Shown here: one piece after another, positions 1 through 43,154 of the stretch
Numbering within the stretch: position 1 is the first letter of the stretch
Layout: every line of letters begins with the position of its first letter
DNA from: Candidatus Pacearchaeota archaeon
Lineage (GTDB): Archaea > Nanobdellota > Nanobdellia > Pacearchaeales > UBA284
Direction: 5' to 3'
Length of the DNA: 64,000 nt
Assembly: GCA_026016245.1 (NCBI GenBank)
Contig: CP061211.1
Location: 567,285-631,284 of the forward strand
The notes under the pieces: model-generated
The model's database searches: none
Told to the model about the DNA's origin: nothing
Seen by the model: only the letters and a program-made list of their open reading frames with translations
Program-made: the position numbers and the translations under genes

Positions 1-247
1 GTTCATTAAAGTACATACAATCTCTTATGGCATCTTCACTGAATTCATCAACAATACCATTTGGGGCAACACACTCCATTATATTTCTAGCTACTGTGCT
101 TGCTTCAATATCACGCATATCATACTGCTTGGAATAGTGGGCTGTCACAACTGCAACCACCCCCCCAACAACAATAACTAATATGAGGAATTTGTGAAGC
201 CAGGTCACTGCATGTCCTGCCTGTGCTTTCTTATTTTTTATCTTCAT
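1..247 (-). CDS. Pilin-like small protein with class III signal peptide (partial, runs off the window start)
   Basis: ATG at 247 on the minus strand. N-terminus MKIKNKKAQAGHAVTWLHKFLILVIVVGGVVAVV is a basic stretch followed by a hydrophobic helix, like the neighbouring pilin-like ORFs. The frame stays open to position 1. Confidence 0.45.
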   Translation of the reverse strand, partial: MKIKNKKAQAGHAVTWLHKFLILVIVVGGVVAVVTAHYSKQYDMRDIEASTVARNIMECVAPNGIVDEFSEDAIRDCMYFNE

Positions 248-264
248 TTTTCTATTTTTTCATT

Positions 265-612
265 TTATCTTATATTTATAATCGTGAAAGCATCTTTTCT
301 TGAAAAATCCACATTATCCTTAAGATAACAATCATAGAAATAGCCTCTATCAAATTCCCCCTCTTTGACCACAACACCATTACCCTCTTTTTCTATACTT
401 ACTCTAGTATCATGCTCTATTATAATTCTTGTTCCTGGCTCAGCTGTTGATATAAGGAGACAAGTTTCTTTTGCAAGAACCTGTTTTTTCATTGCTATTC
501 CTGAAGCTTGATTACTGACCCATAAAGTGAGAATGATTATTATAGCTATGATGAAGATAAGAGTGAAGATAAATTCCCACCCAAGTTCAACACCTCTTTT
601 ATCTTTAAGCAT
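265..612 (-). CDS. Archaeal type IV pilin-like protein (class III signal peptide)
   Basis: N-terminus MLKDKRGVELGWEFIFTLIFIIAIIIILTLW: a KRG site followed by a hydrophobic helix, typical of a PibD/FlaK substrate. 115 aa. Confidence 0.55.
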   Translation of the reverse strand: MLKDKRGVELGWEFIFTLIFIIAIIIILTLWVSNQASGIAMKKQVLAKETCLLISTAEPGTRIIIEHDTRVSIEKEGNGVVVKEGEFDRGYFYDCYLKDNVDFSRKDAFTIINIR

Positions 613-633
613 TTTATCGAAAAAGTATCAGGA

Positions 634-1557
634 TTATGGAATACTCTCTATATTATTGCATACTGCACCTATTTCAGAAGCTTTCATAGGTGCAAGAATA
701 AGATGATAACAGCCTTCCCATTCTTCGTTACATTTTGAGGATACATATGAATTACCTATTATAGTTGATACTGCTTGTGTTCCTAATGCTGATCCAACAA
801 CAATAGCAACAACTATTGGATGTTTAAATGCTGTGCTGGCTACTTTTCCAATTAATCTTCCAGTAGTCCAAGGTCCAGTTGTTACCATACTTACTGCTCC
901 GAGCCCTGCTACTATTTTCAAATCATTTTTAAGAACTTCCCAATAACTTCTACCACGTATGCCCATATAAATAATTACATAATCTGAATCAGTTCTTATT
1001 TTTGGGGCCTCTATACCTACAGCAAGATCTTTATCTGCCTGGTCTGTGAAATATTCATAATAGGTTATGTTGCTAAGAGGAATCTTAGTTTGTACAAGAT
1101 AATTAAACATATCTATTTCCTTTACTTTTTCTTTAACATTATCATCGAACTTTATAGTAGTACAGATAACACAAGCTGATTTGGGGTAACCTGCTCCTGG
1201 AACAGCATAACTTTGCCAGATACTTTCACTAAAAAAATCCATTTCTCCCTCACCTAACATCCACCAACAGTCATACATCTGGTTTGCTATCTCTCTTTTG
1301 ATAAAGTTTTCATCTGTTGAGCTTATTTCTATATGCTGTGTTTTGCAATTTAATGGAATACCAGCAAGCTGTCCAGGTTGCAGGCCAGCTATCTCCTGAC
1401 TTCTTAGAATTACAGATTGATGACATGCCTCTTTATTGATTGTTTCCTCATAAGGAAAAATTTTCAGAAAATAAAAAAGTATTGCAGCAGTTATTATTAG
1501 AATCACAATACCTATAATAATGTTCTGGACTAAAGCCCCTTTTTTGTTTTTCATCAT
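634..1557 (-). CDS. Pilin-like N-terminus secreted protein (307 aa)
   Basis: N-terminus MMKNKKGALVQNIIIGIVILIITAAILFY (KKG then hydrophobic helix). The rest of the protein is unrecognised. Confidence 0.5.
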   Translation of the reverse strand: MMKNKKGALVQNIIIGIVILIITAAILFYFLKIFPYEETINKEACHQSVILRSQEIAGLQPGQLAGIPLNCKTQHIEISSTDENFIKREIANQMYDCWWMLGEGEMDFFSESIWQSYAVPGAGYPKSACVICTTIKFDDNVKEKVKEIDMFNYLVQTKIPLSNITYYEYFTDQADKDLAVGIEAPKIRTDSDYVIIYMGIRGRSYWEVLKNDLKIVAGLGAVSMVTTGPWTTGRLIGKVASTAFKHPIVVAIVVGSALGTQAVSTIIGNSYVSSKCNEEWEGCYHLILAPMKASEIGAVCNNIESIP

Positions 1558-1715
1558 CTTAATTTGTATTTTTATTTATATAAATTTTTATATTACCCCA
1601 TATCTCTTCAACAGATAAATTATCATACCTCCAATTATTGCAAAAAGTATTATTAAAAATAATATTTTGATTAGTGTTTCAACTGCCATGGCTTTCTTGT
1701 TTATTTTCTTTTTTA

Positions 1716-2810
1716 TCATATCAACTCCATTTTTGCCCTAATTTTTTCTGCATAAATACGTCCGGCAAATGTTGATGGGCATCCTGTAATTGTTAATGGT
1801 TCACAATTATTTCTTACTCCGCCAGAGCCAGTATTATATGCAGCTATCCCTAACCATTGATTTTGAAATTCAGCTATTCTTTCAGCAAGGAATCTTGTAC
1901 CAGCATCAATGTTTTTTATAGGATTAAATCTTTCATCTTCTTCTTTATTGCAATTTTCTGGATGTACTTTATTGCAAATTGATATTGAAGTTCTTTTTTC
2001 AGACATGCATGGAGAAAGCTGACTTATATCTTCTGTTCCATAGTCAGGCACAGAAAGACCGAGCAGCTTGGCTGTTTGTGGCATGATTTGCATTAGTCCC
2101 ACTTCACCATCACAACCTATTGCATCCTCAACAGATAGAGATTCCTGAATTATTATTGCTCTGATAATTTTTTCAAATTCCTCTTTGTTTGCAATATAAT
2201 TACTAAGTTGATATTGGCTGTAGTATTTTTCTACTATGCTCGCCAACTCGCTATCCCACTCCTTTGTTTTCATCTTATTATAAGCAAAATTAACATCTAC
2301 TTTTTCTTCCTCACTTAATTTTACCCCTACTACTGCAAGTTCTATCTTACTTACCTCATAATGATCTATTTGATGTGCAAGCCAGATATCCACAATTTCA
2401 ATCTTTATGTTAGCAGGCTTTTCTTCTTGTTTTAAAGGCAGTTCAATCACACGACAGAGTTTGCTTTCACATTTTTTCTTACAAACACAAAGAACATTTT
2501 TTTGGAATAATGTTGTAGGTTTTTGGAAATTCTCATTAATATTGTGTTGCTCATCAAAAGCAACTACATACCAGCCTTTAGGAGCTAAAAGAGTGTATCT
2601 TGCTACTTCAGCTTCTTCAAGGCTGTTTAGTTCTTGTATTAAACTATCTAGTGTTCCTTGTGCCTGCATTTCATCCTGTTTACCAAAATATGTTCTGAAA
2701 AGGATAGTGCTAGCATATAGGAGAATAAGGATAACAGCAATTGCAACTATTATTTCAATTATTTGTTTAAGCAAAAGCAAACCTCTTTTGTTCATAAAAG
2801 AAACATACAA
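1716..2810 (-). CDS. Pilin-like N-terminus fused to a lytic transglycosylase (SLT) domain
   Basis: N-terminus MNKRGLLLLKQIIEIIVAIAVILILL is a class III-like signal. The C-terminal part carries SLT family motifs: IIQESLSVEDAIGCDGEVGLMQIMPQTAKLLGL (the ES...GLMQIMP.TA box) and AAYNTGSGGV (the AYNAG box). Confidence 0.7.
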   Translation of the reverse strand: MYVSFMNKRGLLLLKQIIEIIVAIAVILILLYASTILFRTYFGKQDEMQAQGTLDSLIQELNSLEEAEVARYTLLAPKGWYVVAFDEQHNINENFQKPTTLFQKNVLCVCKKKCESKLCRVIELPLKQEEKPANIKIEIVDIWLAHQIDHYEVSKIELAVVGVKLSEEEKVDVNFAYNKMKTKEWDSELASIVEKYYSQYQLSNYIANKEEFEKIIRAIIIQESLSVEDAIGCDGEVGLMQIMPQTAKLLGLSVPDYGTEDISQLSPCMSEKRTSISICNKVHPENCNKEEDERFNPIKNIDAGTRFLAERIAEFQNQWLGIAAYNTGSGGVRNNCEPLTITGCPSTFAGRIYAEKIRAKMELI

Positions 2811-2842
2811 AGATATTATTTAAAATTTCTTGTTATTATTAC

Positions 2843-3021
2843 TACTGAACTTGTGTTGCGTTCCAAAGACCGAGAGCATTTTTAAGTTTTGCCATCAAAT
2901 CAGACATGAACTGCCTCATTGCTCCAGAGAAAATGAGGACAATAACAACAAGAACAATAATAGCAAGAATTATAATCACAATAGTATTGATTGAGAGTCC
3001 TACAGCCTTCTTGTTGCGCAT
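2843..3021 (-). CDS. Small pilin-like protein (59 aa, absent from the ORF track)
   Basis: Translation MRNKKAVGLSINTIVIIILAIIVLVVIVLIFSGAMRQF... The N-terminus is almost identical in pattern to the downstream ORF (KKAVELNVNTIIIVILAIL). Confidence 0.5.
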
Positions 3022-3026
3022 TTTGC

Positions 3027-3401
3027 TTACTTGCTTCTTATAGTTTCACACATGTCTGAAGTAAATCCTGCCCCTAGACATTCTTCCTCATCCAATGCTT
3101 TGATAAGATTGTTATCACAGTAGACTGGTAGGGTTCCTATAACTTCTCCATCTGACATTTCTCTTATTGTAAATTCATGTGTGCAAAAACTGGTTTTGTC
3201 TCCAGCGCTGCAATATAGAGTGCATGCATTCCTAGTCTGTTCTATGTCTGTTTGTGAATAGGCCCCAGGGATTGGTATGATCTTTTGCCAAAGTTGTTGT
3301 ATTCCTCCAGTAAAGTAAAGTGCAAGAATAACTAGAACAAGAATTGCAAGAATTACTATAATTATTGTATTAACGTTTAACTCAACAGCTTTCTTATTCA
3401 T
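3027..3401 (-). CDS. Archaeal type IV pilin-like protein
   Basis: N-terminus MNKKAVELNVNTIIIVILAILVLVILALYF (KKA then hydrophobic helix). 124 aa with several Cys in the C-terminal half. Confidence 0.55.
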   Translation of the reverse strand: MNKKAVELNVNTIIIVILAILVLVILALYFTGGIQQLWQKIIPIPGAYSQTDIEQTRNACTLYCSAGDKTSFCTHEFTIREMSDGEVIGTLPVYCDNNLIKALDEEECLGAGFTSDMCETIRSK

Positions 3402-3456
3402 TTTTTACCTCTTTTTATTTTTTTATTAAGTATGACTTGTTTTTAAAATTTTCTTT

Positions 3457-4047
3457 TTATTCAGCACATCTCTCAAGCTGAATTATGGGTGGTTTTTCAT
3501 AGCTTATCACAAAATAAAGCCCATCTTGTTTTTTGTAAAAGAAAGGACTTATAACATTAATTTCTTCACTCCACCATAAAGCACCTTTTTTTGACCCCTC
3601 TTGTTTAAACAATGGTGGCTCTTTACTGAAGTCAACAACTTTTTTTATTCTGTAAGGAACTTCTTGTTTTGTTTCGTAAAATATTGCAGAAATCTTCAGA
3701 TCACTTAGAGTAGTGCTTTTATAATCCTTATTTCCGTGAGTTAGTGTGATTTCTACAGCGCGCCCAGGTAATTCAGTAAAAACAAGGTTTGAATTCTGAA
3801 CAAAACTTGCTGGAAAATTAGGCAGGCCGTCACATACGCAATCATTATTCTGCAAAGAAAGACATTTGTCTATATTGCTGATAAGGACATCAAAATTATC
3901 TTCATTCTGCTGTTGCTGTTCTATGTTAAGCTTCCCCCCTCTTATTGCCGCATAGAGAGGATTGAAAAAACCAAGAAGTATAAGCACGACAACAGCTATT
4001 ACTATTACAGCGATTGAAGCTCTAATAATCTCCCATATTCCCATCAT
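3457..4047 (-). CDS. Pilin-like or secreted protein (196 aa)
   Basis: N-terminal hydrophobic helix MMGIWEIIRASIAVIVIAVVVLILLGFF. It lies inside the run of pilin-like genes. Confidence 0.4.
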   Translation of the reverse strand: MMGIWEIIRASIAVIVIAVVVLILLGFFNPLYAAIRGGKLNIEQQQQNEDNFDVLISNIDKCLSLQNNDCVCDGLPNFPASFVQNSNLVFTELPGRAVEITLTHGNKDYKSTTLSDLKISAIFYETKQEVPYRIKKVVDFSKEPPLFKQEGSKKGALWWSEEINVISPFFYKKQDGLYFVISYEKPPIIQLERCAE

Positions 4048-4055
4048 TTTTATTT

Positions 4056-4211
4056 CTACCTACCAAATCTCAAAAAAGCTTTGAGTTCTTCTAAAATATT
4101 TACCCCTCGTTTTTGTAAAACAAATATAAAGATTATGACAAGAGCAAGAACAACTAGTCCAATAACCCACCAGTTTATCTCGCTCCAGACCAAACCTCTT
4201 TTGTTTTTCAT
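4056..4211 (-). CDS. Small pilin-like protein (51 aa, absent from the ORF track)
   Basis: Translation MKNKRGLVWSEINWWVIGLVVLALVIIFIFVLQKRG... The KRG then hydrophobic helix matches a class III signal. Confidence 0.45.
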   Translation of the reverse strand: MKNKRGLVWSEINWWVIGLVVLALVIIFIFVLQKRGVNILEELKAFLRFGR

Positions 4212-4257: not shown

Positions 4258-5022
4258 TTGGGAAAGATGAACAGGTTATTGGCTATTTTTTTATCTTTAT
4301 CTACTGCTATTTCTCCAATTGCTCTAGCACAAGAATATCAGGGAATGAAGCTGGAACAAAGAATAAAGGATTTTAATGAGGTCATCAGAAGAAGGAATTT
4401 CTCAAATTATGATGTGCCTATAATTCATCTTCAAGTAGTTGATAAGGATTCTAAATGGCCTTTGGAAGATGCAAGAGTTGAATTAAAACATGAGGATAAG
4501 AGGATAACAGATGGTTATCCTGTCCCTGGAGATTATATGTATTATAATCCTTATAGATCCAAAACTGATGAAGAAGGAAATGTTATTTTTAGCGTGACTC
4601 CATGTCATGAAGAGGAAATAACAAGATTAGAAGTAAAGTGCCAAGGTTATTATCCAATTGATGTAGATTTTCCCTTGCTTAATCTTTTAGCACATATTAA
4701 TAACACTTTAAGTAACCCACTTCCAGACTCAATTGAGCAGAAGCTGGAATTTGAGTATGATTGGAATAATGCTACTGTTTTCCGTGTGTTTTATGAAAAC
4801 GCAAATGAATTTATAGAGAAGGTTTTGGGTGATGATATAGCAAGATATGATAGAGAGGCTAATAATATTTTTGGAAATAATTTTTATTCTTGGTATGTAA
4901 ATAGTCTTTTAGGAAAAAAACTTCCAACACCCCTAATGCCTCCAATAAAAGAGTTTCATATTCTTATTCCTGGCATAGTTGAAATGGAAAAAGTGCCAGA
5001 AAAGATAAAGATAGAGTATTAG
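4258..5022 (+). CDS. Secreted hypothetical protein
   Basis: Sec-type signal peptide MGKMNRLLAIFLSLSTAISPIALAQE. No recognisable domain. Confidence 0.45.
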   Translation: MGKMNRLLAIFLSLSTAISPIALAQEYQGMKLEQRIKDFNEVIRRRNFSNYDVPIIHLQVVDKDSKWPLEDARVELKHEDKRITDGYPVPGDYMYYNPYRSKTDEEGNVIFSVTPCHEEEITRLEVKCQGYYPIDVDFPLLNLLAHINNTLSNPLPDSIEQKLEFEYDWNNATVFRVFYENANEFIEKVLGDDIARYDREANNIFGNNFYSWYVNSLLGKKLPTPLMPPIKEFHILIPGIVEMEKVPEKIKIEY

Positions 5023-5031
5023 AAAGATAAA

Positions 5032-7206
5032 TCAGACCATGATTCCACCTACTGCTATTGTTGCGAGAGCAGCCAGAGCAATTATTGCAATGAATGCTGC
5101 TATTGTATAAAGTGTCATTCCTGTCAACAACATTTTTGCTTTTTCTGCTTTCTCTCCTAATCTATCTTCCCCTGATTCAATTGTAACAAGAGTTCCTGTT
5201 AAGATGAAAATTATCTCAATTATGTAAATACCAACAATGATTTGAAGCCAGTATGGTGGAATCATTTTAACAACATTAAACATAGTTGTTATTGTTCCTA
5301 CTGTTCCAAAACCAGCAAGAGTTTGTTCTCCGCTTAGTGCGCCCATCTGTAACATAGATTCAAGCCTTCCTAATATCATTGTAATCATTGCTGCTAATCC
5401 TACAACTATTGCAGCTAAAAGTGGAGCAAGAAAAGTCATATTACTTTTCATTCCAGTTGTAACATCAGCTAATAAATCTTTTAATCTTTCATTTACTTTG
5501 TGAATATTCTTGACATACTCACTTATAGCCATTAGTGCTCTGGCTGCAACACCAAGCCCTTTTTTCAAGCTCTCTATGAGAATTCTCATACTTGTTTTTA
5601 TCAGCTCAGATGGATAGTAATTGATAGCTCCTCTGCCTTTTCCAAACACAGCACGTTCAACAGACATTCCTGCTTGTCGTATATTCATGTTGACCATTGA
5701 GAAAAAGCCAGCTGTTGGTGTTCCTTTAAGGGAACTAGCAACTCTACCAAAAGCCATTTCAGCAGGAATTCCATCAGCAAGTCTATTGCCTAATTGAAAG
5801 ACACTTGAAGCAAACTCTTTTTCAAGTTTTTTTGTTTCTTTTCTAGTTCCAATCAATTTTCGTGTTTTTAGTTTGTATGCCATTATAAAGAAAATGGCTA
5901 TAGCTAGCGGGATAAATAAACTTAGAAGCAGAGCAAAAGGACCAAAAGGACCAACAGTTGTATTAGTTTCTGGATCAACTTTAAAGTCAAATATATTTTG
6001 ATTTCCTAAAAAACCCATTCCTAATTGATCAAAAGTATAATCAGCTGGAATATTTAGAACATCAGCTAATCCATATTGCATTAACAAAGGCAAAAGTCCT
6101 ATTAAGAGGAAGGGTAAAGCAATAAGAGCAGCGGTTGCATATGGCTTGTTTGATTTATAAAAGTGATAATTGGGGTTTTTCTCAAGTAGTTCTGTTTCAC
6201 CAAAACCACCAGGCCTTTTGGATAAAACACTGTTGGTCATGTAAAAGACAACAAATGGAACAAGAATATTGTAAAGCAGGGCAACATGATACCATTGTAT
6301 GGCTCCTTGTAATAATGTTGAAGCTAAAGGCAATAAAGCAAGACCAAGAGTTGGTAAGACAATGCCTAACATATAGACATTTGTTAGAGGGCTTTTAACA
6401 TCATGAGTGTAATGCAACATTTTTTCATAAACACCATCAAGAATAACTTCGAGAGCTTTTTCCAAGGTTTTTAATCTTCTTGCTTCTACTGGCTCATAAA
6501 GAGAAGATTCTATGAGATGGAAGGATTCTATAAATTCAAGATTATGCTCTCGCCAAGTCTCGAAATATGCATCCAAGGCATCTTTTATAGTGCTGTATTT
6601 TCCTGTCTCGACATTCCAGAAAATCTTTTTTAGGTCAAGAGAAAGAGGCGGCTGTAAGTGTCGGGATGCAAAATGGATTGCTCTTTCCAGGTTTGAGGAG
6701 TGTTTCATATAAACCACAATATAGAGAATGCATGGGACCATTTGGGAAGAGGCTTTTAGACACCATTTTTGTTCTAATCTACCAGGCAAGCCATTCAAGT
6801 AGTAGAAAAGGAAAAATGATATAAATAAGAGCAGGAGAAAAATTAAGAAAGGAAAAGTGTCTGTGAGTAAAAATACTGCTAATGAGATTAAGGTGGCAAG
6901 AATTATTATAATTATTAGTGAAAATACTGCCAAGCCAGCAGCCTCGCCTGGTTCAATGTCAAGATGTGCTCTTTCTATTGCCTTTCTTGTTTTCTCCTCG
7001 TCTTTTTTTGAAAGTTTTAACTTGATGATTCGGCCTATATTTTTGCAGGCACGCTCATAAGTGTTAAGAGGTGCGAGAGTTTCTCTTCTGAATTTTTTAT
7101 ATTCGTGAGAATAATCTGTAGGAGCTTCAGCAACCTCTGTCCTAAGTTCTCTTTCTATCTTAGCCTCAAACTCTTTTAGAAACTCCCTACCCTCTTTTCT
7201 TACCAT
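5032..7206 (-). CDS. Polytopic membrane protein, possibly a FlaJ/TadC-like (T2SS-F domain) pilus assembly platform
   Basis: 724 aa with many transmembrane helices and two soluble helical segments (...EMAFGRVASSLKGTPTAGFFSMVNMNIRQAGMSVERAV...) that resemble T2SF/TadC cytoplasmic domains. It sits next to the pilin-like cluster. No ATPase partner lies within the window. Confidence 0.4.
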   Translation of the reverse strand: MVRKEGREFLKEFEAKIERELRTEVAEAPTDYSHEYKKFRRETLAPLNTYERACKNIGRIIKLKLSKKDEEKTRKAIERAHLDIEPGEAAGLAVFSLIIIIILATLISLAVFLLTDTFPFLIFLLLLFISFFLFYYLNGLPGRLEQKWCLKASSQMVPCILYIVVYMKHSSNLERAIHFASRHLQPPLSLDLKKIFWNVETGKYSTIKDALDAYFETWREHNLEFIESFHLIESSLYEPVEARRLKTLEKALEVILDGVYEKMLHYTHDVKSPLTNVYMLGIVLPTLGLALLPLASTLLQGAIQWYHVALLYNILVPFVVFYMTNSVLSKRPGGFGETELLEKNPNYHFYKSNKPYATAALIALPFLLIGLLPLLMQYGLADVLNIPADYTFDQLGMGFLGNQNIFDFKVDPETNTTVGPFGPFALLLSLFIPLAIAIFFIMAYKLKTRKLIGTRKETKKLEKEFASSVFQLGNRLADGIPAEMAFGRVASSLKGTPTAGFFSMVNMNIRQAGMSVERAVFGKGRGAINYYPSELIKTSMRILIESLKKGLGVAARALMAISEYVKNIHKVNERLKDLLADVTTGMKSNMTFLAPLLAAIVVGLAAMITMILGRLESMLQMGALSGEQTLAGFGTVGTITTMFNVVKMIPPYWLQIIVGIYIIEIIFILTGTLVTIESGEDRLGEKAEKAKMLLTGMTLYTIAAFIAIIALAALATIAVGGIMV

Positions 7207-7343: not shown

Positions 7344-7637
7344 ATGGTATTGAAAATTCTAAGGGTAAGCGATGTGGTTGGGATGAAGATTTTTACTGAT
7401 TCTGGAGACTATCTAGGTATGGTAGAAGAAGCAAATGTTGTAGGTAATAAAGTAGATAGTTGGAGAGTAAAAATAGCTCGTGACAGTAATTTATCTGCAC
7501 TTCTTTCTGGTGCTCGTGGTTTGATAATCCCTCACCAATATGTTAAAGCAATAAGTGAAGTTTTGATAATAAGTAGAAGTGCTATTCCAGTAAGAGAAGA
7601 GATGAAAGAAGCTGGAGAGGCAACTTTATTAGAATAA
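7344..7637 (+). CDS. PRC-barrel domain protein
   Basis: SDVVGMKIFTDSGDYLGMVEEANV is the PRC barrel signature. 97 aa. Confidence 0.55.
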   Translation: MVLKILRVSDVVGMKIFTDSGDYLGMVEEANVVGNKVDSWRVKIARDSNLSALLSGARGLIIPHQYVKAISEVLIISRSAIPVREEMKEAGEATLLE

Positions 7638-7660
7638 ACCTAAGAACCTAAATTTTTAAG

Positions 7661-8152
7661 ATGGTTGCAGAAACTATTGGTATATTTGCACATCCTTTTT
7701 TCACTAATATTATTCTACCCTTTCTTCTTGTTTTTGTAGTTATTTATGCTATTTTAGAGAAGACTACTGTATTGGGCAAGGATAAGAGATATGCTAATCT
7801 TATTGTTGCTTTTGTTATAGGTTTTATGTTTATTGGTGCTCAGGCTTTGGTTGGCTTTACTATCAAACTCCTTCCATTAATTGCAGTCATGATAATAATC
7901 TTACTAGGTTATTTTTTGGTTTTTGGCTTTATTGGAATAGAAAAAAGTAAAGGTATGCAAATTGCTCTAGGAATATTATTTGGTATAGCTATCTTGGCAG
8001 CAGTATTCTGGGCAGCTGGAGTATTTGAGATGATAACACCATCTACATGGAGTCCTGATACAATAGCTATAATTGTTTTCCTTGTCATTTTTGGAGGAGC
8101 CATAGCCTTAGTGCTTGCAACTGCTCCAAAACCAAAACCAAAATCAACATAA
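7661..8152 (+). CDS. Small membrane protein, paralog 1 of 3
   Basis: 4-5 transmembrane helices. Shares the N-terminal pattern ...LLVFVVIYAILEKTTVLGKDKRYANLIVAFVIGF with the next two ORFs. Confidence 0.45.
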   Translation: MVAETIGIFAHPFFTNIILPFLLVFVVIYAILEKTTVLGKDKRYANLIVAFVIGFMFIGAQALVGFTIKLLPLIAVMIIILLGYFLVFGFIGIEKSKGMQIALGILFGIAILAAVFWAAGVFEMITPSTWSPDTIAIIVFLVIFGGAIALVLATAPKPKPKST

Positions 8153-8223
8153 ATATCAACGTAATTAAAAAGAAAAGTATATAAAACATAATCTTTTTAA
8201 TAAAATAGACAAAAGAGGATAAA

Positions 8224-8757
8224 ATGGTTGATGGATACGGTGGATGGTATGCGTGGACAGATCTTTATGGGATTATCCAGCAGTGGGAAGCATTTGGTGT
8301 ATTCACTATATTATTTCCTTTAGTTTTAGTATTTGCAGTTGTTTTTGCAATACTAGAAAAAGTAGATCTGTTCAAAAATAGAGGGGTTCATTTGCTTATA
8401 GCCCTGATTATAGGTTTCTTCACTGTGAGCAATCCTTATGTTGGTGGTTTTTTTATGTATTTCTTCTCAAATCTTGGAATAGGTGTGGCAATAATGCTTG
8501 CCTTAATTGTTTTGTTGGGAATAGCTTTAAAACCTGGAGAACAAGCATGGAAAGTTATTTTTGGAATTGTTGGAGGAGCAGTATTTTTAGTTATTCTAGC
8601 TAGGAGCGGAACATTCAAATGGATTTTTGGAGAGAATTTCTGGTACTGGATTCAGGCAAATAGTGCTTTGGTGGTTGTGGCTATAGTTGTCATTTTAATG
8701 ATAGTTGCTGTAATGACTGGAGTTAAAAAAGCACAAGTTAAAGGAAAAATAATCTAA
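8224..8757 (+). CDS. Small membrane protein, paralog 2 of 3
   Basis: ...LVLVFAVVFAILEKVDLFKNRGVHLLIALIIGFF is the same architecture as 7661-8152. Confidence 0.45.
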   Translation: MVDGYGGWYAWTDLYGIIQQWEAFGVFTILFPLVLVFAVVFAILEKVDLFKNRGVHLLIALIIGFFTVSNPYVGGFFMYFFSNLGIGVAIMLALIVLLGIALKPGEQAWKVIFGIVGGAVFLVILARSGTFKWIFGENFWYWIQANSALVVVAIVVILMIVAVMTGVKKAQVKGKII

Positions 8758-8778
8758 AGTAAAAGAGTAAAAAGTAAA

Positions 8779-9258
8779 ATGGTTGTGTTAGATTTAAGCG
8801 GAATGTCAACTTTCATCCCTGTATTTGGTTTTCTTCTTGTTTTTGTAGTTGTTTATGCATTATTAGGAAAGACAAAAGTTTTAGGAGACAATAGGTTTGT
8901 CCATATTCTTACTTCTTTTGCAATTGCTATAATCTTTCTTGTTTCAGCAAATGCAGTAGAATATGTTAGAGTTGTAACCCCTTGGTTTGCTGCCTTTGTT
9001 GTTTCTCTATTATTTATTGTTCTTGTCGTAAGTCTAATTAAAGGCGATATAGATAAGTTCTTTAAACCTGGTTTTGGATGGTTAATTGTCATAATTCTTA
9101 TAGCAGTGTTTGTATTCTCAGCAGTCTATGTTTTTGCTGATATCATAAATAAGTACATGGCTGGTCCAAAAGCTTTCTTGCTTCAGCCTACTGTGATTGG
9201 AATTATCGTGCTTATAGGAATCACAATACTTGCTTCTTGGCTTTTAACAAGAAAATAA
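8779..9258 (+). CDS. Small membrane protein, paralog 3 of 3
   Basis: ...LLVFVVVYALLGKTKVLGDNRFVHILTSFAIAIIFL is the same family as the two upstream ORFs. Confidence 0.45.
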   Translation: MVVLDLSGMSTFIPVFGFLLVFVVVYALLGKTKVLGDNRFVHILTSFAIAIIFLVSANAVEYVRVVTPWFAAFVVSLLFIVLVVSLIKGDIDKFFKPGFGWLIVIILIAVFVFSAVYVFADIINKYMAGPKAFLLQPTVIGIIVLIGITILASWLLTRK

Positions 9259-10715: not shown

Positions 10716-11585
10716 ATGAGGAAAATTTATTTGTTAATTTGTTTTATAATTCTATTATCCCTTTTTATAAGCGTTCAAGCAAATGAGAAATACACTTATC
10801 TTGATGTAACTTTACTAAACCAAGATCCATATCCAGCACAACCAGATAATTATGTTGACCTTATTTTTAAGATAGAGAATGAAGGAGGAAGTGAGGCAGA
10901 GGATGTCCTTGTGGAACTGCTTCCAGAGTATCCTTTTTCTCTTGACCCTGGTGTTAGTGCCATAAAGAGAATTGGTTTGATAAGAGGTTCACAGTATGGT
11001 GCGGAAGCTGTTTTTGTTAAATATAGAGTTAGAGTGGATAAGGATGCTATTGATGGAGAAAATGGGATAAAATTAAGATATATTTATAACACAGAAGGGA
11101 TATGGGACAAGTTCTTTGAAAAAGAATTTGATATTATGATAGATGATCCTAAAACAGATTTTGATATTGCTATTCAAGATTATTCTTCTGAAACAAATAG
11201 CTTGACAATTGCCATCTCAAACATAGGAGAGCAAGATGCAAATTCTGTTACAATAATACTTCCAGAACAAAGCTCAATAGATATTATAGGTTCAGATAGA
11301 GAGATTGTCGGAGGCATAGATGCTGATGATTACACTGTATCTTCCTTTAGAGTTATTCCTAGGGAAGATGCTGCTCTGATTGTAAGAATTGCTTATACAG
11401 ATTCTATAGGTGTAAGAAGAGAAGTTGAAAAAGCTGTGATATTCCATGCTTCAAAATATGAAAAAGAAGCTGATAAAGGAGCAGTTACAGATTATAGAGC
11501 TCTGATTTATATTGCTATCGGAGTGATAGGGATAATTATTATTTTTGTATTACTCAGAATTCTCAGAAAAAAAAGAAAAAAATAG
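10716..11585 (+). CDS. Secreted surface protein with C-terminal membrane anchor
   Basis: Signal peptide, then a CARDB-like IFKIENEGGSEAEDVLVELLP segment, then a C-terminal transmembrane helix with a basic tail (IGIIIIFVLLRILRKKRKK). Confidence 0.45.
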   Translation: MRKIYLLICFIILLSLFISVQANEKYTYLDVTLLNQDPYPAQPDNYVDLIFKIENEGGSEAEDVLVELLPEYPFSLDPGVSAIKRIGLIRGSQYGAEAVFVKYRVRVDKDAIDGENGIKLRYIYNTEGIWDKFFEKEFDIMIDDPKTDFDIAIQDYSSETNSLTIAISNIGEQDANSVTIILPEQSSIDIIGSDREIVGGIDADDYTVSSFRVIPREDAALIVRIAYTDSIGVRREVEKAVIFHASKYEKEADKGAVTDYRALIYIAIGVIGIIIIFVLLRILRKKRKK

Positions 11586-11593
11586 GTTAAAAA

Positions 11594-12829
11594 ATGAAAT
11601 TTGATGACTCACTGAAGTTTGCCTTAAATAATTTAACAACAAGAGGCTTGAGAAGCTGGTTAACTATTATTGGTGTTATTATTGGTGTTGCTGCTATAGT
11701 TGCCATAGTTTCAGTCGGACAGGGAATGCAAGAAACTATCTCAGCAGAGCTTGGAAGTCTTGGAGGAGATGTGGTTTTTGTTCTTGCAGGGTCTTCTTTT
11801 CAGATGGGTATTGCTCAAGCTGGATATGCTAGAGCAGCAGGAGAATTAGATGATAGAGATGTAAGAGTTATAGAGGCTGTAGAAGGGGTGTTACATGTTG
11901 CCCCAGACATTTTTGGTTTCGTAGAAGTGAGTTATCTGAAACAAAACAGGACCTTGTATATGTATGGGACGAATGAGAACTGGGCAAAAGTCAGAAGTAG
12001 TTTTAATATTGAATCAGGCAGATTTTTGAAGAGGGGGGATAGTGGTGTGGTTGTTTTAGGAAATACAATTGCAAAAGAAGCTTTTGATAAGGAAATTTTT
12101 GTGGGTTCTAATATAAAAATAGAGGGCGAATCTTTTAGAGTTATAGGAATTCTTGAGAAATTTGGGGGGTTTGGTTCAGATGAAGACCAGTCTGTTTATC
12201 TTACACTAGAGGATGCAGAACCTTACTCAGGAGGATTTGGTGTTGATAATTATTATGCTATAGAAGTAAAGGTAGATGCAGAGAGAGCAGAGGAAATTGC
12301 TGAAAAAATGAAGGAAAAACTAATGATCTCAAGACATGTTAATGAAGAAAATATTGATTTTACTGTTCTTACACCAAAAACAATAGCAGAGATGGTCTTT
12401 AGCATTATGAACACAATAAATCTTTTCCTTTACGGAATAGCTGCCATCTCTCTTGTTGTAGGAGCTGTTGGAATAGCTAATACAATGTTCACTTCAGTCA
12501 CAGAAAGAACTAGACAAATAGGAATTTTAAAATCCTTAGGAATGACAAATAAAGAAGTAATGAACCTTTTCCTTGTAGAATCTGCTCTTATTGGGTTAGT
12601 TGGAGGTATTCTTGGATTGTTTGTTGGTTTTATTATTTCTGGAACAATAGGTCAAATAGCAGCTTATTTCCTTAGAGGAGCAATGTTCAGAACATCTTTT
12701 ATTTCTATAACTCCTGGCCTTATAATCTTCGCCTTAGCATTTTCAGTTATCATAGGAGTTATCTCTGGAATATTCCCTGCAAGGAGAGCAGCTAAACTAC
12801 AACCAGTTGAAGCTTTGAGGTATGAATAA
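11594..12829 (+). CDS. ABC transporter permease, FtsX/MacB family
   Basis: N-terminal transmembrane helix LRSWLTIIGVIIGVAAIVAIVSVGQG, a large extracytoplasmic domain, and 3 C-terminal transmembrane helices ending ...VEALRYE (FtsX fold). Confidence 0.75.
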   Translation: MKFDDSLKFALNNLTTRGLRSWLTIIGVIIGVAAIVAIVSVGQGMQETISAELGSLGGDVVFVLAGSSFQMGIAQAGYARAAGELDDRDVRVIEAVEGVLHVAPDIFGFVEVSYLKQNRTLYMYGTNENWAKVRSSFNIESGRFLKRGDSGVVVLGNTIAKEAFDKEIFVGSNIKIEGESFRVIGILEKFGGFGSDEDQSVYLTLEDAEPYSGGFGVDNYYAIEVKVDAERAEEIAEKMKEKLMISRHVNEENIDFTVLTPKTIAEMVFSIMNTINLFLYGIAAISLVVGAVGIANTMFTSVTERTRQIGILKSLGMTNKEVMNLFLVESALIGLVGGILGLFVGFIISGTIGQIAAYFLRGAMFRTSFISITPGLIIFALAFSVIIGVISGIFPARRAAKLQPVEALRYE

Positions 12830-13502
12830 AATGAAAAAAGAAATACTTCACACAAAAAATTTAGTAAAACACTATTATTTGGATGGTGTGATTGTCAAAG
12901 CAATAAATGGTGTTACATTTAGTATTCCCAGAAACAAAATGACAGTTATAATTGGTCCTAGTGGTTGTGGAAAATCAACCCTGCTTCATTTAATAGGGCT
13001 TCTTGACAAACCAACAAGGGGAAAGATTTATTTTGACGGATATGATATTTCTAAATTAACTGAAACAAAACTTGCTAAACTGAGATTAAAAAAAATAGGT
13101 TTTGTCTTTCAATTTTTTAATCTACATCCTTTGCTTACAGCAGTAGAAAATGTTGAACTTCCTTTAACAATATCAAATGTTTCTCTAGCAGAAAGAAGAA
13201 AAAAAGCTCTAGAACTTTTAAAAATAGTTGGACTTAAAGAAAGAGCTGATCATTATCCAAATCAACTTTCAGGAGGTGAACAACAGAGGGTTGCAATAGC
13301 CAGGGCAATGTCAAATGATCCCGAGATTATTATGGCTGACGAACCTACTGGAAATCTTGACACAAAATCAGGAGATGATATTATGAGATTGCTAATAAAA
13401 TTAAGAGAAAAATCAACAGTCATAGTAATAACTCATGATGCAGATATAGCAAGAAGAGCAAATAAAACAATAAAATTAAGAGATGGAATAATAGTTAAGT
13501 AA
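12822..13502 (+). CDS. ABC transporter ATP-binding protein (MacB/LolD-like)
   Basis: Walker A GPSGCGKST, ABC signature LSGGEQQRVAIARA, Walker B IIMADEPTGNLD. The start overlaps the permease gene. Confidence 0.85.
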   Translation: MNKMKKEILHTKNLVKHYYLDGVIVKAINGVTFSIPRNKMTVIIGPSGCGKSTLLHLIGLLDKPTRGKIYFDGYDISKLTETKLAKLRLKKIGFVFQFFNLHPLLTAVENVELPLTISNVSLAERRKKALELLKIVGLKERADHYPNQLSGGEQQRVAIARAMSNDPEIIMADEPTGNLDTKSGDDIMRLLIKLREKSTVIVITHDADIARRANKTIKLRDGIIVK

Positions 13503-20947: not shown

Positions 20948-21070
20948 GCCTCAGTAGCTCAGTTGGTAGAGCGGCGGTCTTGTAATAAAGAACCCAGGTT
21001 CTTTAAATTCCTAAAGAACAAGGGAAAACAAGAAAACCGTAGGTCGGGGGTTCGGATCCCCCCTGAGGCT
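20948..21070 (+). tRNA. tRNA-Thr(UGU) with an intron of about 50 nt after position 38
   Basis: Acceptor GCCTCAG/CTGAGGC, D arm GCTC-AGTTGGTA-GAGC, anticodon stem GCGGT/ACCGT with loop CTTGTAA, T arm GGGGG-TTCGGAT-CCCCC. About 50 nt are inserted 3' of the anticodon loop. Confidence 0.8.
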
Positions 21071-22814: not shown

Positions 22815-24683
22815 ATGCAGCACAAGAAAGCACAAGTTACTATTTTTATAATAATTGCTGTACTTATTGTAGCTGTGGCTCTCTTCTCCTATTTTTTCAT
22901 CTTCAGACCGCCAGCAATTGTAATTCCTTCTGAAATTCAGCCTGTTGAAGCTTATCTTGTTGAGTGTGTTAGCGAGCAAGTTAAAGATGCTACAAGGATT
23001 GCTGGATTACAAGGAGGATATTTGGAAATGCCAGAGTTTGAACCTGGTTCTGAACAGCTTCCTTTTTCATCCCAGTTTGATTTTTTAGGAATACAAGTTC
23101 CTTATTGGTTTTATGTTTCTGGAAATAATCTAGCTAGGGAAAGAAAGCCTAGTTTGAAGGATATAGAAAAAGAGTTTGCTGATTATCTTAAAGAAAGAGT
23201 TGAGGAATGTAAGTTTGAGAGTTTTATTTTGCAAGGTTATGATATTGAAGTAGAAGGAAAGCCAGATATTGAAGTTAATATTAGAGCAAATTCAATTGAA
23301 ACATTAGTAAACTGGCCTATTGATATTAATTATAGAGATATTAATGTTCGAATTGTAGAACATAGGGTTAGTACTAAAACCAGTTTTGGCCAACTTTATG
23401 ATACTGCAAATAGAATTTTTGATAGTGAGCAGGAGAAGTTGTTTTTAGAGAATTATGCTCTTGATGTCTTAAGACTTTATGCTCCTACTACTGATATTGA
23501 ATTAAGTTGTGCTCCTAAAACCTGGTTTGTTAGTTCTGTTAGGGATGAGGTAAATAGTGCTCTTGAAGTTAATATCGCTGCTGTCAAGGTTTCTGGAACT
23601 TATTATGAATTAGACAGGAAAGAGGATGAGTATTTTGAGGTTGATGTTGGTGAGAGTATTGATGAGCAAGTGTATTTTCTTTATTTTAGGAATATGCCTC
23701 ATGTCTTTGAAGTTTGGCCTTCTGAAGATAATTTAATGGAAGCAGAACCTATTGGAACACAGCCTGGTCTTGGTATCTTAGGAACTTTAGGTTTGTGTTA
23801 TGTTCCTTATCATTTTGTCTATGATTTGAAATTCCCTGTTTTAGTTCAAGTGCTTAGGAATGGTGAGCTATTCCAGTTTCCTGTTGTGGTTGTAATTGAT
23901 AAAAATAGTATAAGAAATATGACTGCTGCTGAAACTCAGGAAATTGTGTTTGATTTATGTCAGCATAAAACACAGGAAGTTACAATATTCACTTATGATG
24001 AAAATACTCAGCCAATTGAGGCTAAGCTTGGATTTAAATGCTTTAATCAAATATGTGATTTAGGTAGGACAAGAATAGAGGGCAGTAAGGCTGTTCTTGA
24101 AACTAGAATACCCCAATGTTATAATGGATTTGTAGTAGCTAAGGCTGATGGTTATGTTACTAAAAAAGCTCCATCTCCAGGAATACAGACTTTTGTCATG
24201 AATGTATTCATGAGTCCTGAGCATGTTCTTGATTTAGAGGTTGGGGGATTGGGAAGCGGAGAGCATGCTACTGTAACTTTCACATCAGAAGATTATAGTG
24301 CTAGTGTTTATTATCCTGATCAAAAACAAATAATCTTGGCTGAAGGAATCTATAATGTATCAGTTTATTTGTTTAAAGAATCCTCAATTACTTTGGAATC
24401 TCAGAGAGTTGAAAAATGCATAGATGTTCCTGTTGGTGGTATTGGCGCTATATTTGGAATTATGCAAGAGCAATGTTTTGAGCTTGATGTGCCTCAAGAA
24501 ACTTATACTGATGTAATATTTGGAGGAGGTTTTGTTGAATTTTCTATAACTGAATCTGAATTAAGAGGAGCATCTAAAGTCAGCATTATAGCTCCTTCAT
24601 ATGATGTTCCAAAAAATCTGTTTGATTTAGGAGATGTTTATGGATTAATAGATGTCGGTGAAGTTCGAGTTTCAATAAAATGA
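22815..24683 (+). CDS. Membrane-anchored hypothetical protein, translationally coupled to the giant gene
   Basis: N-terminal transmembrane helix QVTIFIIIAVLIVAVALFSYFFIF. Its stop overlaps the next start in an ATGA at 24680-24683. Confidence 0.5.
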   Translation: MQHKKAQVTIFIIIAVLIVAVALFSYFFIFRPPAIVIPSEIQPVEAYLVECVSEQVKDATRIAGLQGGYLEMPEFEPGSEQLPFSSQFDFLGIQVPYWFYVSGNNLARERKPSLKDIEKEFADYLKERVEECKFESFILQGYDIEVEGKPDIEVNIRANSIETLVNWPIDINYRDINVRIVEHRVSTKTSFGQLYDTANRIFDSEQEKLFLENYALDVLRLYAPTTDIELSCAPKTWFVSSVRDEVNSALEVNIAAVKVSGTYYELDRKEDEYFEVDVGESIDEQVYFLYFRNMPHVFEVWPSEDNLMEAEPIGTQPGLGILGTLGLCYVPYHFVYDLKFPVLVQVLRNGELFQFPVVVVIDKNSIRNMTAAETQEIVFDLCQHKTQEVTIFTYDENTQPIEAKLGFKCFNQICDLGRTRIEGSKAVLETRIPQCYNGFVVAKADGYVTKKAPSPGIQTFVMNVFMSPEHVLDLEVGGLGSGEHATVTFTSEDYSASVYYPDQKQIILAEGIYNVSVYLFKESSITLESQRVEKCIDVPVGGIGAIFGIMQEQCFELDVPQETYTDVIFGGGFVEFSITESELRGASKVSIIAPSYDVPKNLFDLGDVYGLIDVGEVRVSIK

Positions 24684-35795: not shown

Positions 35796-36419
35796 ATGCC
35801 TATTAAGAAAAAGGAGAAGATAAAAAAGATAAGAAGGAAGACAACAAAAAAGAAAACACCAAAGAAGACAATAAAGAAAACAAAAAAGAAAAAAGGAAAT
35901 TCTAAAGTCTTTAAAGCTTTGGTTATTGGAAGAAGGGTTGTTAGTGAAGACAAGAAAGCTCTAGATTTATATGGAAAGAGTTATTTTGGCCAGGTTACTG
36001 GAGGTAAGGTTTATTATTCTTTTGTAGAAGCTGCTTATTTGATTGATAAAGGAAAGATTAATATTTATGAGGGGAGGAAAAAATTAAATTTTGATAAGTT
36101 TGTTAACAAAGCCAGAAGCCTTGAAAAAAACTTCTGGACCAGATTTTCTGTTTTTAGAGATATTCGTAATAGAGGTTATATTATAAGGACTGCTCTGAAG
36201 TTTGGAGCAGATTTCCGGATTTATGACCGGGGGGTTAAGCCTGGAAAAGAGCATGCAAGATGGATTTTATTTCCAGTTTATGAATCCTCTAGTTTAACAT
36301 GGCATGAATTTACTGCCAAGAGTAGAGTCGCTCATAGTACGAGAAAAAAATTACTTATAGGGATTGTTGATGAAGAGGGTGATGTGACTTATTATGAAGT
36401 AAATTGGGTAAAGCCTTGA
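35796..36419 (+). CDS. endA: tRNA-splicing endonuclease (EndA) with a Lys-rich N-terminal extension
   Basis: C-terminal catalytic region YIIRTALKFGADFRIYDRGVKPGKEHARWILFPV matches the EndA pattern (K.G.DF.vY ... H). Confidence 0.6.
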   Translation: MPIKKKEKIKKIRRKTTKKKTPKKTIKKTKKKKGNSKVFKALVIGRRVVSEDKKALDLYGKSYFGQVTGGKVYYSFVEAAYLIDKGKINIYEGRKKLNFDKFVNKARSLEKNFWTRFSVFRDIRNRGYIIRTALKFGADFRIYDRGVKPGKEHARWILFPVYESSSLTWHEFTAKSRVAHSTRKKLLIGIVDEEGDVTYYEVNWVKP

Positions 36420-41601: not shown

Positions 41602-42264
41602 ATGGATGAAAAAGAAATAGAAAAATTAAGAAAAAAAATTTTAGAACAGGTAGAAAGGCTACCAGAAGAGCAAGCCTCCTCTTTGAGAGAACAGATTAAG
41701 AGCGCAAGTCCTCAAGAGCTGGAGAATTTTTTAAAACAACAAATGGTTCGAGGAGATGAGGGCGAGTGTTTTTTCTGCCAGCTTGTTTCTGGTAAAGTTG
41801 AAACAGTGAGGATATATGAGGATGCTGATATTTTATGTATTCTAGATATCTATCCTGCAAATCCTGGACATATGATTGTTATACCAAAAAAACATTTTCA
41901 GTTTATGCATGAAATCCCTGATGCTCTTCTGAAAAAGATATTTATTTTTATTAAAACAATAGAGCCTATACTCCTTGATACTACTAAAGCACATGGTTTA
42001 AGCATTTATATTGCCCAAGGACAGGGAGCTGGTCAGAAAGTAAAACATTTTTCTGTAAATCTTATTCCTAGATTTGAAGGTGATAATATTAATTTTGAAT
42101 GGCAAAGAAAAAAAGTTTCTAAAGATGAATTAGAAAAGCTTGGTAAAAAGATAAGGGAAAAAAGCGAGGGAATTGTAAGGGGGGAGCAGGAAAAAAAGGA
42201 GAAAGAAAAAGAATTGGAAGAGGCTGAAAAGATGATGAAGCATGTTAAGGAAAGAGTGCCTTAG
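41602..42264 (+). CDS. HIT-family-like hydrolase with a Glu/Lys-rich tail
   Basis: GECFFCQLVSGKVETVRIYEDADILCILDIYPANPGHMIVIPKKH is the HIT N-terminal core. The histidine triad looks degenerate (VKHFSVNL). Confidence 0.5.
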   Translation: MDEKEIEKLRKKILEQVERLPEEQASSLREQIKSASPQELENFLKQQMVRGDEGECFFCQLVSGKVETVRIYEDADILCILDIYPANPGHMIVIPKKHFQFMHEIPDALLKKIFIFIKTIEPILLDTTKAHGLSIYIAQGQGAGQKVKHFSVNLIPRFEGDNINFEWQRKKVSKDELEKLGKKIREKSEGIVRGEQEKKEKEKELEEAEKMMKHVKERVP

Positions 42265-43154
42265 ATTCCAAACAAGTAATGTATTATTATAAATAATAAA
42301 TCACCCACAAACAGGCTGCATATTAAAGCTATGAGGAAGACTGGTACAAAAGGCAGGCCGTATTTGATTGTAATTTTCTTTTTTGATTTTCTAAGCAGCT
42401 GAATGTCTTTCTTACTTAAACCATGAATGCTTGGCTTGATCATTTTATTCTTTATTTTTACAGATTCAATTATCCAGTCTCCTTCACTGAGCTTGCTTGC
42501 TGGAACTTTTCTGATCATTGCTGAATTTTCTGCAGCTTTGATGAAAGAGTAAAGTAAGGGCAGGATTAAGAATACTATAAATGGAATGAAAAACCAGCTT
42601 TTATCAAATAAACTTAATGTTAAGGCGATGGCAGCTATAAGCCAGGAGATAGTTCTGAAAAATCTTATTCTTTTGAATGTTTTTTGGAATTCCATGCCAA
42701 ATGTTTTATTTCTAATTGCTGAGAAGATACTGAAGAAAAGTCCATAAATAGAACCTATGAAAAATATGTTAATTAGGAAAATGAGAAGAAAAGGCTCATT
42801 GAATGATCCTAGTGAATAAACCTGAAAATGTGATGCAAAAATTGGTTGTGTTGCAAAAACCACAGAAAGGGCCATCAAAAGTTTGGCATCCCCTCCCCCA
42901 AATATTCTAGTATAATAGAAGAGATGCGCTAAAAGGTAAAAGATTGCAAATGCAGCTAGGGCATACCAAAAATATGGGGCTTGTTTTTCCATAATTGCTG
43001 CAAGGGCCCTTACTGCAAATGCTATAAAAATTAAACTAAAACTTAGCCAGTTTGGCACCTCCCTCTTTCTTAAATCAGTTACAGAGGCTGTGATTAGCCA
43101 TAAAAAGGCGATAGATACTAACAAAATATCAGAAATGAAAATTATATCTGCCAT
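42261..43154 (-). CDS. Prepilin/preflagellin peptidase (A24 family, PibD/FlaK-like)
   Basis: First catalytic Asp box ASVTDLRKREVPNWL. Second GGGDAKLLMALS. N-terminal polytopic helices. An extended C-terminal domain is present. Confidence 0.8.
   Translation of the reverse strand: MADIIFISDILLVSIAFLWLITASVTDLRKREVPNWLSFSLIFIAFAVRALAAIMEKQAPYFWYALAAFAIFYLLAHLFYYTRIFGGGDAKLLMALSVVFATQPIFASHFQVYSLGSFNEPFLLIFLINIFFIGSIYGLFFSIFSAIRNKTFGMEFQKTFKRIRFFRTISWLIAAIALTLSLFDKSWFFIPFIVFLILPLLYSFIKAAENSAMIRKVPASKLSEGDWIIESVKIKNKMIKPSIHGLSKKDIQLLRKSKKKITIKYGLPFVPVFLIALICSLFVGDLLFIIIHYLFGI

Follow-up and report, generated by a model that had tools for sequence, protein, structure and literature searches.

The stalk-SLT gene and its product

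The 64-kb stretch of Candidatus Pacearchaeota archaeon DNA analyzed here (GenBank assembly GCA_026016245.1, contig CP061211.1, positions 567,285 to 631,284; hereafter the window, all 64,000 nucleotides of it) carries on its minus strand an open reading frame (ORF), given as 1716-2810 in the ORF list, for which a first reading of the sequence (the original prediction) had proposed a pilin-type N-terminus fused to a lytic transglycosylase domain. The encoded protein, here termed the stalk-SLT protein, consists of three parts: a leader with a hydrophobic helix, a helix/beta stalk and a C-terminal SLT lytic transglycosylase. The TTG codon at position 2810 is an extension made by the ORF caller and the true start is an ATG at 2795, since homologs that bear the stalk start at or near MNKRG and an identical protein already in the databases (P0001, 'MAG: lytic transglycosylase domain-containing protein [Candidatus Pacearchaeota archaeon]', from a 710,724-bp contig) is 359 residues long. 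The parts of the gene are given below; structural assignments refer to AlphaFold2 (AF2) models, with their predicted local distance difference test (pLDDT) scores.

1716..2795, minus strand: stalk-SLT gene, 359 aa (stop codon 1716-1718; start ATG 2793-2795)
2781..2795, minus strand: leader MNKRG, whose R (-2) and G (-1) make it a candidate class III (prepilin-type) signal (criteria of PMC4371748)
2622..2789, minus strand: residues 3-58, predicted continuous alpha-helix, the first half of which is the hydrophobic domain LLLLKQIIEIIVAIAVILILLYASTILF (AF2 models, pLDDT 84 and 87)
2346..2621, minus strand: residues 59-150, globular portion of the stalk, rich in beta structure and containing C103, C105, C109 and C114 (AF2 and alignment)
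2211..2345, minus strand: residues 151-195, Glu/Lys-rich linker and helices, the segment of lowest conservation (model and alignment)
1719..2210, minus strand: residues 196-359, SLT head (GH23, family-1 lytic transglycosylase; Pfam, alignment and Foldseek)

The head was recognized by the Pfam SLT profile (PF01464) with 79.2 bits (E=2.2e-22; cut-off 21.3). The match is divided in two by an insertion, and a Cys-containing insertion of about 45 aa separates motifs II and III of the head. In a phmmer alignment, the IIQES segment of the stalk-SLT protein pairs with TRQES of Pseudomonas aeruginosa Slt, so that E218 (codon at 2142-2144) faces the catalytic Glu of that enzyme, exactly the residue which is replaced by Gln in the E503Q mutant entry 6fcq. 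Across 18 SLT-headed family members, the ES, GLMQ.MP and AYN.G motifs and the Tyr of motif IV show little or no variation: E218, S219, G233, Q236, M238, P239, A319, Y320, G323 and Y348 are found in all 18, and N321 in 15. Judged by the profile match, the catalytic Glu and motifs II-IV, the head can be assigned to the SLT/family-1 lytic transglycosylases (PF01464, GH23). In the AF2 model (pLDDT 84) the head is helical and matches Slt70 (1sly, E=4e-5), Slt, MltD, MltE and MltC, each with a Foldseek probability of 1.00, which points to the goose-lysozyme-like alpha-helical fold; the Ralstonia GH23 chitinase and goose lysozyme were also returned by this search. Outside its own family, the nearest match of the head reaches only 35 bits, and the lack of a close relative argues that the fusion is old rather than the product of a recent transfer. 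Two related sequences have other layouts. On another Pacearchaeota contig (18.8 kb), a 185-aa ORF (P0294) encodes a head-only SLT domain, 73% identical to the stalk-SLT head, and may represent a split gene or a mis-called start. In P0007, on a 2.7-kb contig, the SLT head follows an unrelated, non-hydrophobic N-terminus, possibly as a result of a chimera or a frameshift.

The N-terminus of the protein reads MNKR-G/LLLL (the slash follows position -1), with Arg at -2 and Gly at -1 ahead of the hydrophobic domain. K3 is invariant and R4 at least 90% conserved, and position -1 is Gly or Ala in 16 of 16 stalk sequences. By the class III signal criteria applied here (a charged residue at -2 and Gly, Ala or Ser at -1, ahead of a hydrophobic domain; PMC4371748), the candidate signal would qualify as a class III-type leader. 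In the other AF2 model (pLDDT 87), the helix at residues 3-58 is followed by 8 strands, and the predicted structure fits the pilin-like plan of an N-terminal helix of ~50 aa and a beta-rich globular domain. Both halves of the original prediction are supported, and a chance resemblance can be dismissed: the SLT domain with its catalytic Glu is borne out by the alignment described above, and the class III-type N-terminus is accompanied by similar N-termini on neighboring genes. The same fusion was found in relatives.

Also significant is the distribution of Cys residues. The four Cys of the stalk cluster C-x-C-x3-C-x4-C (residues 103-114) are shared by each of the 16 full-length SLT-family members examined; across the 149 members of the wider stalk family, C103 is invariant and C105, C109 and C114 are each at least 90% conserved; the cluster could form two disulfides or a metal site. 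Among 16 members, C228 and C263 are both present in 6, both missing in 10 and single in none, and C274 and C282 are distributed likewise (8 with both, 8 with neither, 0 with one). Because these residues come and go strictly pairwise, their gain and loss suggests disulfides in an exported protein, which would stabilize the head outside the cell.

Heads carried by the stalk in related archaea

A search of 1.84 billion representative proteins with a profile built from just the stalk returned 1443 clusters at E<=1e-3, of which 248 reached E<=1e-10. The census of lengths, Pfam families and heads that follows covers the best 149 of the 1443 clusters. Lengths are bimodal, with 68 of the 149 consisting of the stalk only (about 150-200 aa) and 78 bearing a head of at least 80 aa. 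Across all 149, Pfam identified seven families only, which are murein hydrolases without exception:

SLT heads: 19 of 149
Glucosaminidase heads: 7 of 149
Amidase_2 heads: 5 of 149
3D heads: 4 of 149
VanY heads: 3 of 149
Peptidase_M15 heads: 3 of 149
Phage_lysozyme2 heads: 1 of 149

BLAST clustering of the heads together with scans of representatives gave the same picture, and the stalk in relatives bears at least five unrelated murein-hydrolase folds. Every named member of the stalk family comes from Pacearchaeota or Nanoarchaeia.

The different versions occupy equivalent positions in the genome. The headless stalk P0020 fills the exact slot of the stalk-SLT gene in the same locus and is no truncation, as it is found on at least 24 contigs, one of them of 90 kb. 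A glucosaminidase version (P0018) is also found in this slot, and an Amidase_2 version (P0064) and a VanY/M15 version (P0058) lie at the corresponding position of a partly rearranged locus. Compared with the stalk-SLT protein, P0008 and P0010 are 62-68% identical over the stalk but just 34-35% over the head, a contrast that indicates module exchange. From these comparisons, the stalk appears to be an autonomous module, a stable component of its locus and a repeated captor of unrelated folds that share one substrate.

The pilus-like locus and its surroundings

A simple rule for pilin-like N-termini (a hydrophobic 15-mer preceded by [KR][KR][GA] in the first 12 residues) is matched by 11 ORFs in the window, 8 of which lie inside 1-4211, all on the minus strand; the location of the gene inside a tandem pilin gene cluster, as originally proposed, is therefore upheld. 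In the locus formed by the window and the adjoining DNA (L001), the stalk-SLT gene lies mid-operon among ~11 genes with like N-termini. The order is a gene for a 724-aa membrane protein, a divergently oriented gene whose 251-aa product is secreted, genes for 51, 196, 124 and 59 aa, the stalk-SLT gene, and genes for 43, 307, 115, 151, 138 and 266 aa, the last two of which are further pilin-like genes beyond the window edge. Gaps in the operon are small, and the stalk-SLT gene and the next gene overlap by 4 bp. Downstream of the operon follow RPA, RadA, a PD-(D/E)XK nuclease, two small genes and a 763-aa T2SSE ATPase. The operon members inside the window, together with the machinery genes found there, are as follows (a slash again follows position -1).

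5032..7206, minus strand: 724-aa polytopic membrane protein, probable TadB/TadC-type pilus platform (homolog labels, context in locus L007)
4056..4211, minus strand: 51-aa pilin-like protein MKNKRG/LVWS... (N-terminus)
3457..4047, minus strand: conserved locus member of 196 aa that begins with a hydrophobic helix (ORF, synteny)
3027..3401, minus strand: 124-aa pilin-like protein MNKKA/VELN... (N-terminus)
2842..3021, minus strand: 59-aa protein MRNKKA/VGLS..., one of the shortest pilin-like genes (weak Flp1_like match)
1588..1719, minus strand: 43-aa pilin-like protein ..NKKA/MAVE.. (start overlaps the stop of the stalk-SLT gene)
634..1557, minus strand: 307-aa pilin-like protein MMKNKKG/ALVQ... 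(N-terminus)
265..612, minus strand: 115-aa pilin-like protein MLKDKRG/VELG... (N-terminus)
1..247, minus strand: 5' part of a 151-aa pilin-like gene, KNKKA/QAGH..., which continues past the window edge (N-terminus)
42261..43154, minus strand: prepilin (class III signal) peptidase, Peptidase_A24 (E=5e-17, above cut-off)

The 59-aa protein encoded just upstream of the stalk-SLT gene is a candidate for the major pilin. The 724-aa membrane protein matches nothing in Pfam, NCBIfam or the PDB; it has more than 4213 homologs, and among the 120 that were listed, 6 are named 'Flp pilus assembly protein TadB' by the Joint Genome Institute (JGI). The T2SSE ATPase lies 7.6 kb from the stalk-SLT gene, its best NCBIfam models being FlaI, TadA and BasE, all below their cut-offs, and the prepilin peptidase matches FlaK_Arch below cut-off (2.5e-10). 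In the related locus L007, a single small gene (90 aa) separates the homolog of the 724-aa protein from the T2SSE ATPase, and the ATPase, the platform and the prepilin peptidase are all found inside 17 kb. Gene order around the stalk gene is kept in homologs at 68%, 43% and 37% identity. Gene content and order thus point to a genomic association with a PilB-type ATPase, a platform and a prepilin peptidase.

Several further genes accompany the locus. RPA-like and RadA genes (14347-17200 of L001, just past the window start) directly follow the pilin-like genes in 7 of 7 far-reaching loci (L001, L002 and L004-L008, including the rearranged L007 and L008), and the PD-(D/E)XK nuclease also follows in 3 of these (L001, L002 and L004); the RPA/RadA adjacency may reflect housekeeping synteny or a link to DNA uptake. 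Beside the platform, on the opposite strand, are found four small genes (7344-9258, plus strand; a 97-aa PRC-barrel protein, a 163-aa membrane protein and proteins of 177 and 159 aa) and the gene for the 251-aa protein, which carries a Sec signal (4258-5022, plus strand). This arrangement is seen in L001, L002, L003 and L005, and in L006 without the 251-aa gene, and these proteins may have an accessory role in the machinery. A MacB/FtsX-type ABC exporter pair (11594-13502, plus strand), which has a CARDB-like protein (10716-11585, plus strand) beside it, shows synteny with the pilus genes of L001 and L005.

The window (GC about 33%) contains the archaeal markers TFB, S3Ae, S8e, S15/S13N, GINS51, tRNA-intron endonuclease and eIF2-alpha. 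Two of its tRNAs, of 123 nt (20948-21070, plus strand) and 109 nt (37512-37620, plus strand), were detected by Rfam but not by ARAGORN, and their excess length and this difference indicate that they probably contain introns; the tRNA-intron endonuclease gene (35796-36419, plus strand) lies between them. Elsewhere in the window, a 2562-aa giant protein (24680-32368, plus strand) with a Sec-type signal contains a Peptidase_M23 domain at aa 1870-1991 (E=2e-17), in which the HxxxD and HxH motifs are intact, and is thus predicted to be another murein hydrolase of the window, the second besides the stalk-SLT protein. The start of the giant gene is overlapped by the stop of a gene for a 622-aa protein (22815-24683, plus strand) with the class III-like N-terminus MQHKKA/QVTIFIIIAVLIV. 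A 287-aa protein (53564-54427, minus strand) carries Por_Secre_tail, a type IX secretion C-terminal sorting domain (E=1e-7) and thus a Bacteroidota-type signal found here in an archaeon, and a 2189-aa giant ORF (46994-53563, plus strand) contains NosD/right-handed beta-helix repeats; similar beta-helix genes adjoin the pilus locus in L006.

Proposed substrate and surface display, and relation to known systems

The best reading of these data is a modular pilin-like protein that would expose exchangeable wall-cutting heads to bacterial cells. That the enzyme is exposed at the surface and acts on foreign murein is very probable, and it is marginally favored that the pilus machinery also acts on the protein and presents it on a filament. 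The substrate is considered here before the mode of display.

Amidases that cleave the bond between N-acetylmuramic acid (MurNAc) and L-Ala, and D-Ala-D-Ala peptidases, recognize structures that bacterial murein has and that pseudomurein and chitin lack. Since the archaeon is not known to make murein, and since alternative heads recognize the murein-specific MurNAc-L-Ala and D-Ala-D-Ala structures, the substrate would be the wall of a bacterium with which the filament or the cell surface comes into contact. This target had been proposed for the SLT head at the outset, and the case is much strengthened by the presence of at least five unrelated murein-hydrolase folds on the same stalk in relatives. 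A substrate other than murein, such as chitin or an archaeal or eukaryotic polymer of N-acetylglucosamine (GlcNAc), is very unlikely. GH23 also includes chitinases and goose-type lysozymes, in keeping with the Foldseek matches of the head, but the motifs are those of family-1 lytic transglycosylases, the top folds are Slt70, Slt, MltD and MltE, and the amidase and D-Ala-D-Ala peptidase heads have no chitin counterpart; chitin, raised by the chitinase fold matches, was set aside on the basis of these heads. Lytic transglycosylase genes in bacterial pilus and secretion clusters commonly serve to open the wall of the producer. An equivalent, assembly-dedicated remodeling of the producer's own wall for passage of the pilus, in the manner of VirB1, BfpH, R64 PilT, EtgA and FlgJ, would agree with the best NCBIfam match of the protein, a flagellar assembly lytic transglycosylase (far below cut-off). 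However, the host is an archaeon, as the markers in the window confirm, and archaea are not known to make murein, which is treated as absent from them (PMC10117817), murein transglycosylases being described as 'normally absent in Archaea' (PMC8204110). No Mur/PBP (murein synthesis) genes were seen in the window or its flanks, headless orthologs in the same slot imply that the head is dispensable for the locus, and the amidase and VanY/M15 heads are not typical space-makers. Self-directed remodeling is thus given hardly any weight.

The mode of display is a closer question. In the alternative arrangement, the protein would be a membrane-anchored ecto-enzyme, in which the helix serves as a signal anchor or as a cleaved, pilin-like anchor retained in the membrane and the stalk as a spacer keeping the hydrolase clear of the archaeal surface; the protein would never enter a filament and would have a task in attacking bacterial walls at cell-cell contacts or in degrading wall debris. 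Several observations weigh against the modular pilin-like reading, most of them by favoring such an anchor. The stalk-SLT protein matches no curated pilin or archaellin family in Pfam (E<0.1) or NCBIfam (E<1), and the stalk has no significant match to any solved pilin structure, nor was any solved relative found, which makes the ecto-enzyme a live rival. In addition, polar residues and a spacer of variable length or sequence occur early in the helix, pilins that stay associated with the membrane can function unassembled (PMC4371748), and a full set of glycan-, amide- and peptide-cleaving heads would also suit the digestion of muropeptides as food. The head census carries a caveat of its own, in that 38 of the 78 headed representatives have a head unmatched in Pfam, PHROGs and the PDB. 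On the other side, conservation of the slot within a compact operon of class III-type genes is strict, the retention of a headless stalk in this slot implies that the stalk itself is structural in the machinery, and the continuous predicted helix of 56 residues far exceeds the length of an anchor. The ecto-enzyme is therefore held to be possible but rather unlikely.

For the modular pilin-like protein, the following course of events can be envisaged. The protein would be inserted into the membrane by the signal recognition particle (SRP)/Sec route and its leader removed by the A24 peptidase, after which the ATPase and platform, a type IV pilus-like machinery, would extract the stalk from the membrane. 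Display would most likely be at the tip of a filament made of the small pilins, since a bulky head fits best there. On contact with a bacterium, the SLT head would cleave the glycan strands between MurNAc and GlcNAc, in the manner of its family without hydrolysis and with formation of 1,6-anhydroMurNAc, and so make a local opening in the sacculus, which may serve attachment, access to the bacterial membrane, or lysis with release of nutrients, and exchange of heads would adapt the tool to differing host walls.

The closest parallel is provided by the bacterial modular type IV pilins, such as Streptococcus sanguinis PilB and PilC, for which display at the tip has been proposed (Raynaud et al., 2021; PMC8179133). 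There too, many alternative modules are found on one type of carrier, predicted peptidase modules among them, and in the stalk-SLT protein stalk and head are likewise joined C-terminally through a linker that is the least conserved segment. However, the bacterial set is defined by the G/FTLxE cleavage and methylation motif (IPR012902; Phe or Met at +1), which is absent from the archaeal stalk: LLLLKQIIE follows the Gly, with Glu at +9 instead of +5. The characterized bacterial modules are adhesins, whereas all identifiable modules on the archaeal stalk are murein hydrolases, and a search of supplementary files of that study turned up no entry with SLT, lysozyme or glucosaminidase. By analogy, the stalk-SLT protein would work like a modular pilin while standing outside the IPR012902-defined set, and it could not be assigned to any curated pilin family. 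In the bindosome of Sulfolobus (PMC4371748), non-pilin archaeal proteins with a prepilin-type signal also use a PilB/PilC-type machinery for assembly at the surface, but the cargo consists of solute-binding proteins for uptake, not of enzymes directed against another organism, and there is no separate conserved stalk module with exchangeable heads.

As regards the enzyme, murein-type lytic transglycosylases of Pacearchaeota and Woesearchaeota have been proposed to act against bacterial walls (Castelle et al., 2021, PMC8204110; Vigneron et al., 2022, PMC9723730; PMC10936187). The fam00969 proteins (PMC8204110; PMC9723730) share lineage, catalytic family and proposed target with the stalk-SLT protein, but they are described as large extracellular proteins of up to about 3000 aa unlinked to pili, compared with 359 aa and a pilus locus here. 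VirB1, BfpH, R64 PilT, EtgA and FlgJ resemble it in being SLT-family enzymes encoded in a pilus or secretion cluster, and differ in acting on the sacculus of the producer itself and in being periplasmic Sec substrates or lipoproteins rather than pilin fusions. Woldo and Danwoldo, haloarchaeal peptidoglycan hydrolases shown to kill bacteria (Strock et al., 2025; PMC12352652), are likewise archaeal enzymes against bacterial murein, a glucosaminidase among them; only Sec or Tat signals are reported for them, and they combine catalytic with peptidoglycan-binding domains, in contrast to the stalk-SLT protein with its prepilin-type N-terminus and stalk and no recognized binding domain. The literature searched contained no description of a pilin-type stalk with swappable heads, and neither of two recent preprints, one dealing with archaeal type-4 filaments and one with genomes of Nanobdellota, nor a 2016 census of type IV pili in archaea mentions fusions of murein hydrolases to pilin-type proteins. 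The novelty implied by the original prediction is thus narrowed: SLT genes in Pacearchaeota and Woesearchaeota, with bacterial walls as their proposed target, are already known from the studies cited above, and what appears to be new is a pilin-like carrier in a conserved pilus locus with interchangeable murein-hydrolase heads.

Pacearchaeota and Woesearchaeota are among the most abundant uncultured archaea, and the finding bears on their hosts and lifestyle and on whether DPANN archaea live on bacteria. It turns a vague hint from murein transglycosylases into a defined and testable device, in which one carrier of a pilus operon has repeatedly captured wall-specific enzymes, and it offers practical handles in the form of recombinant heads, antibodies against the stalk and the head type as a predictor of the wall type of the host. 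The modular-pilin principle would be extended to archaea and to enzymatic cargo, and surveys of archaeal peptidoglycan hydrolases that are limited to Sec/Tat signals or require a binding domain could miss this class of stalk-head proteins. A further-reaching proposal, which we regard as improbable on present evidence, is that Pacearchaeota and related Nanoarchaeia are contact-dependent exploiters of bacteria, the tip subunit of a type IV pilus-like filament being an exchangeable 'drill bit', a cutter of glycan, amide or peptide bonds matched to the wall of the host. The apparatus may then also acquire released DNA or nucleotides, as needed by cells that scavenge nucleotides, a suggestion prompted by the invariable succession of the locus by RPA and RadA. 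If this proposal were true, no machine for cross-domain predation or uptake would have been described in archaea before it.
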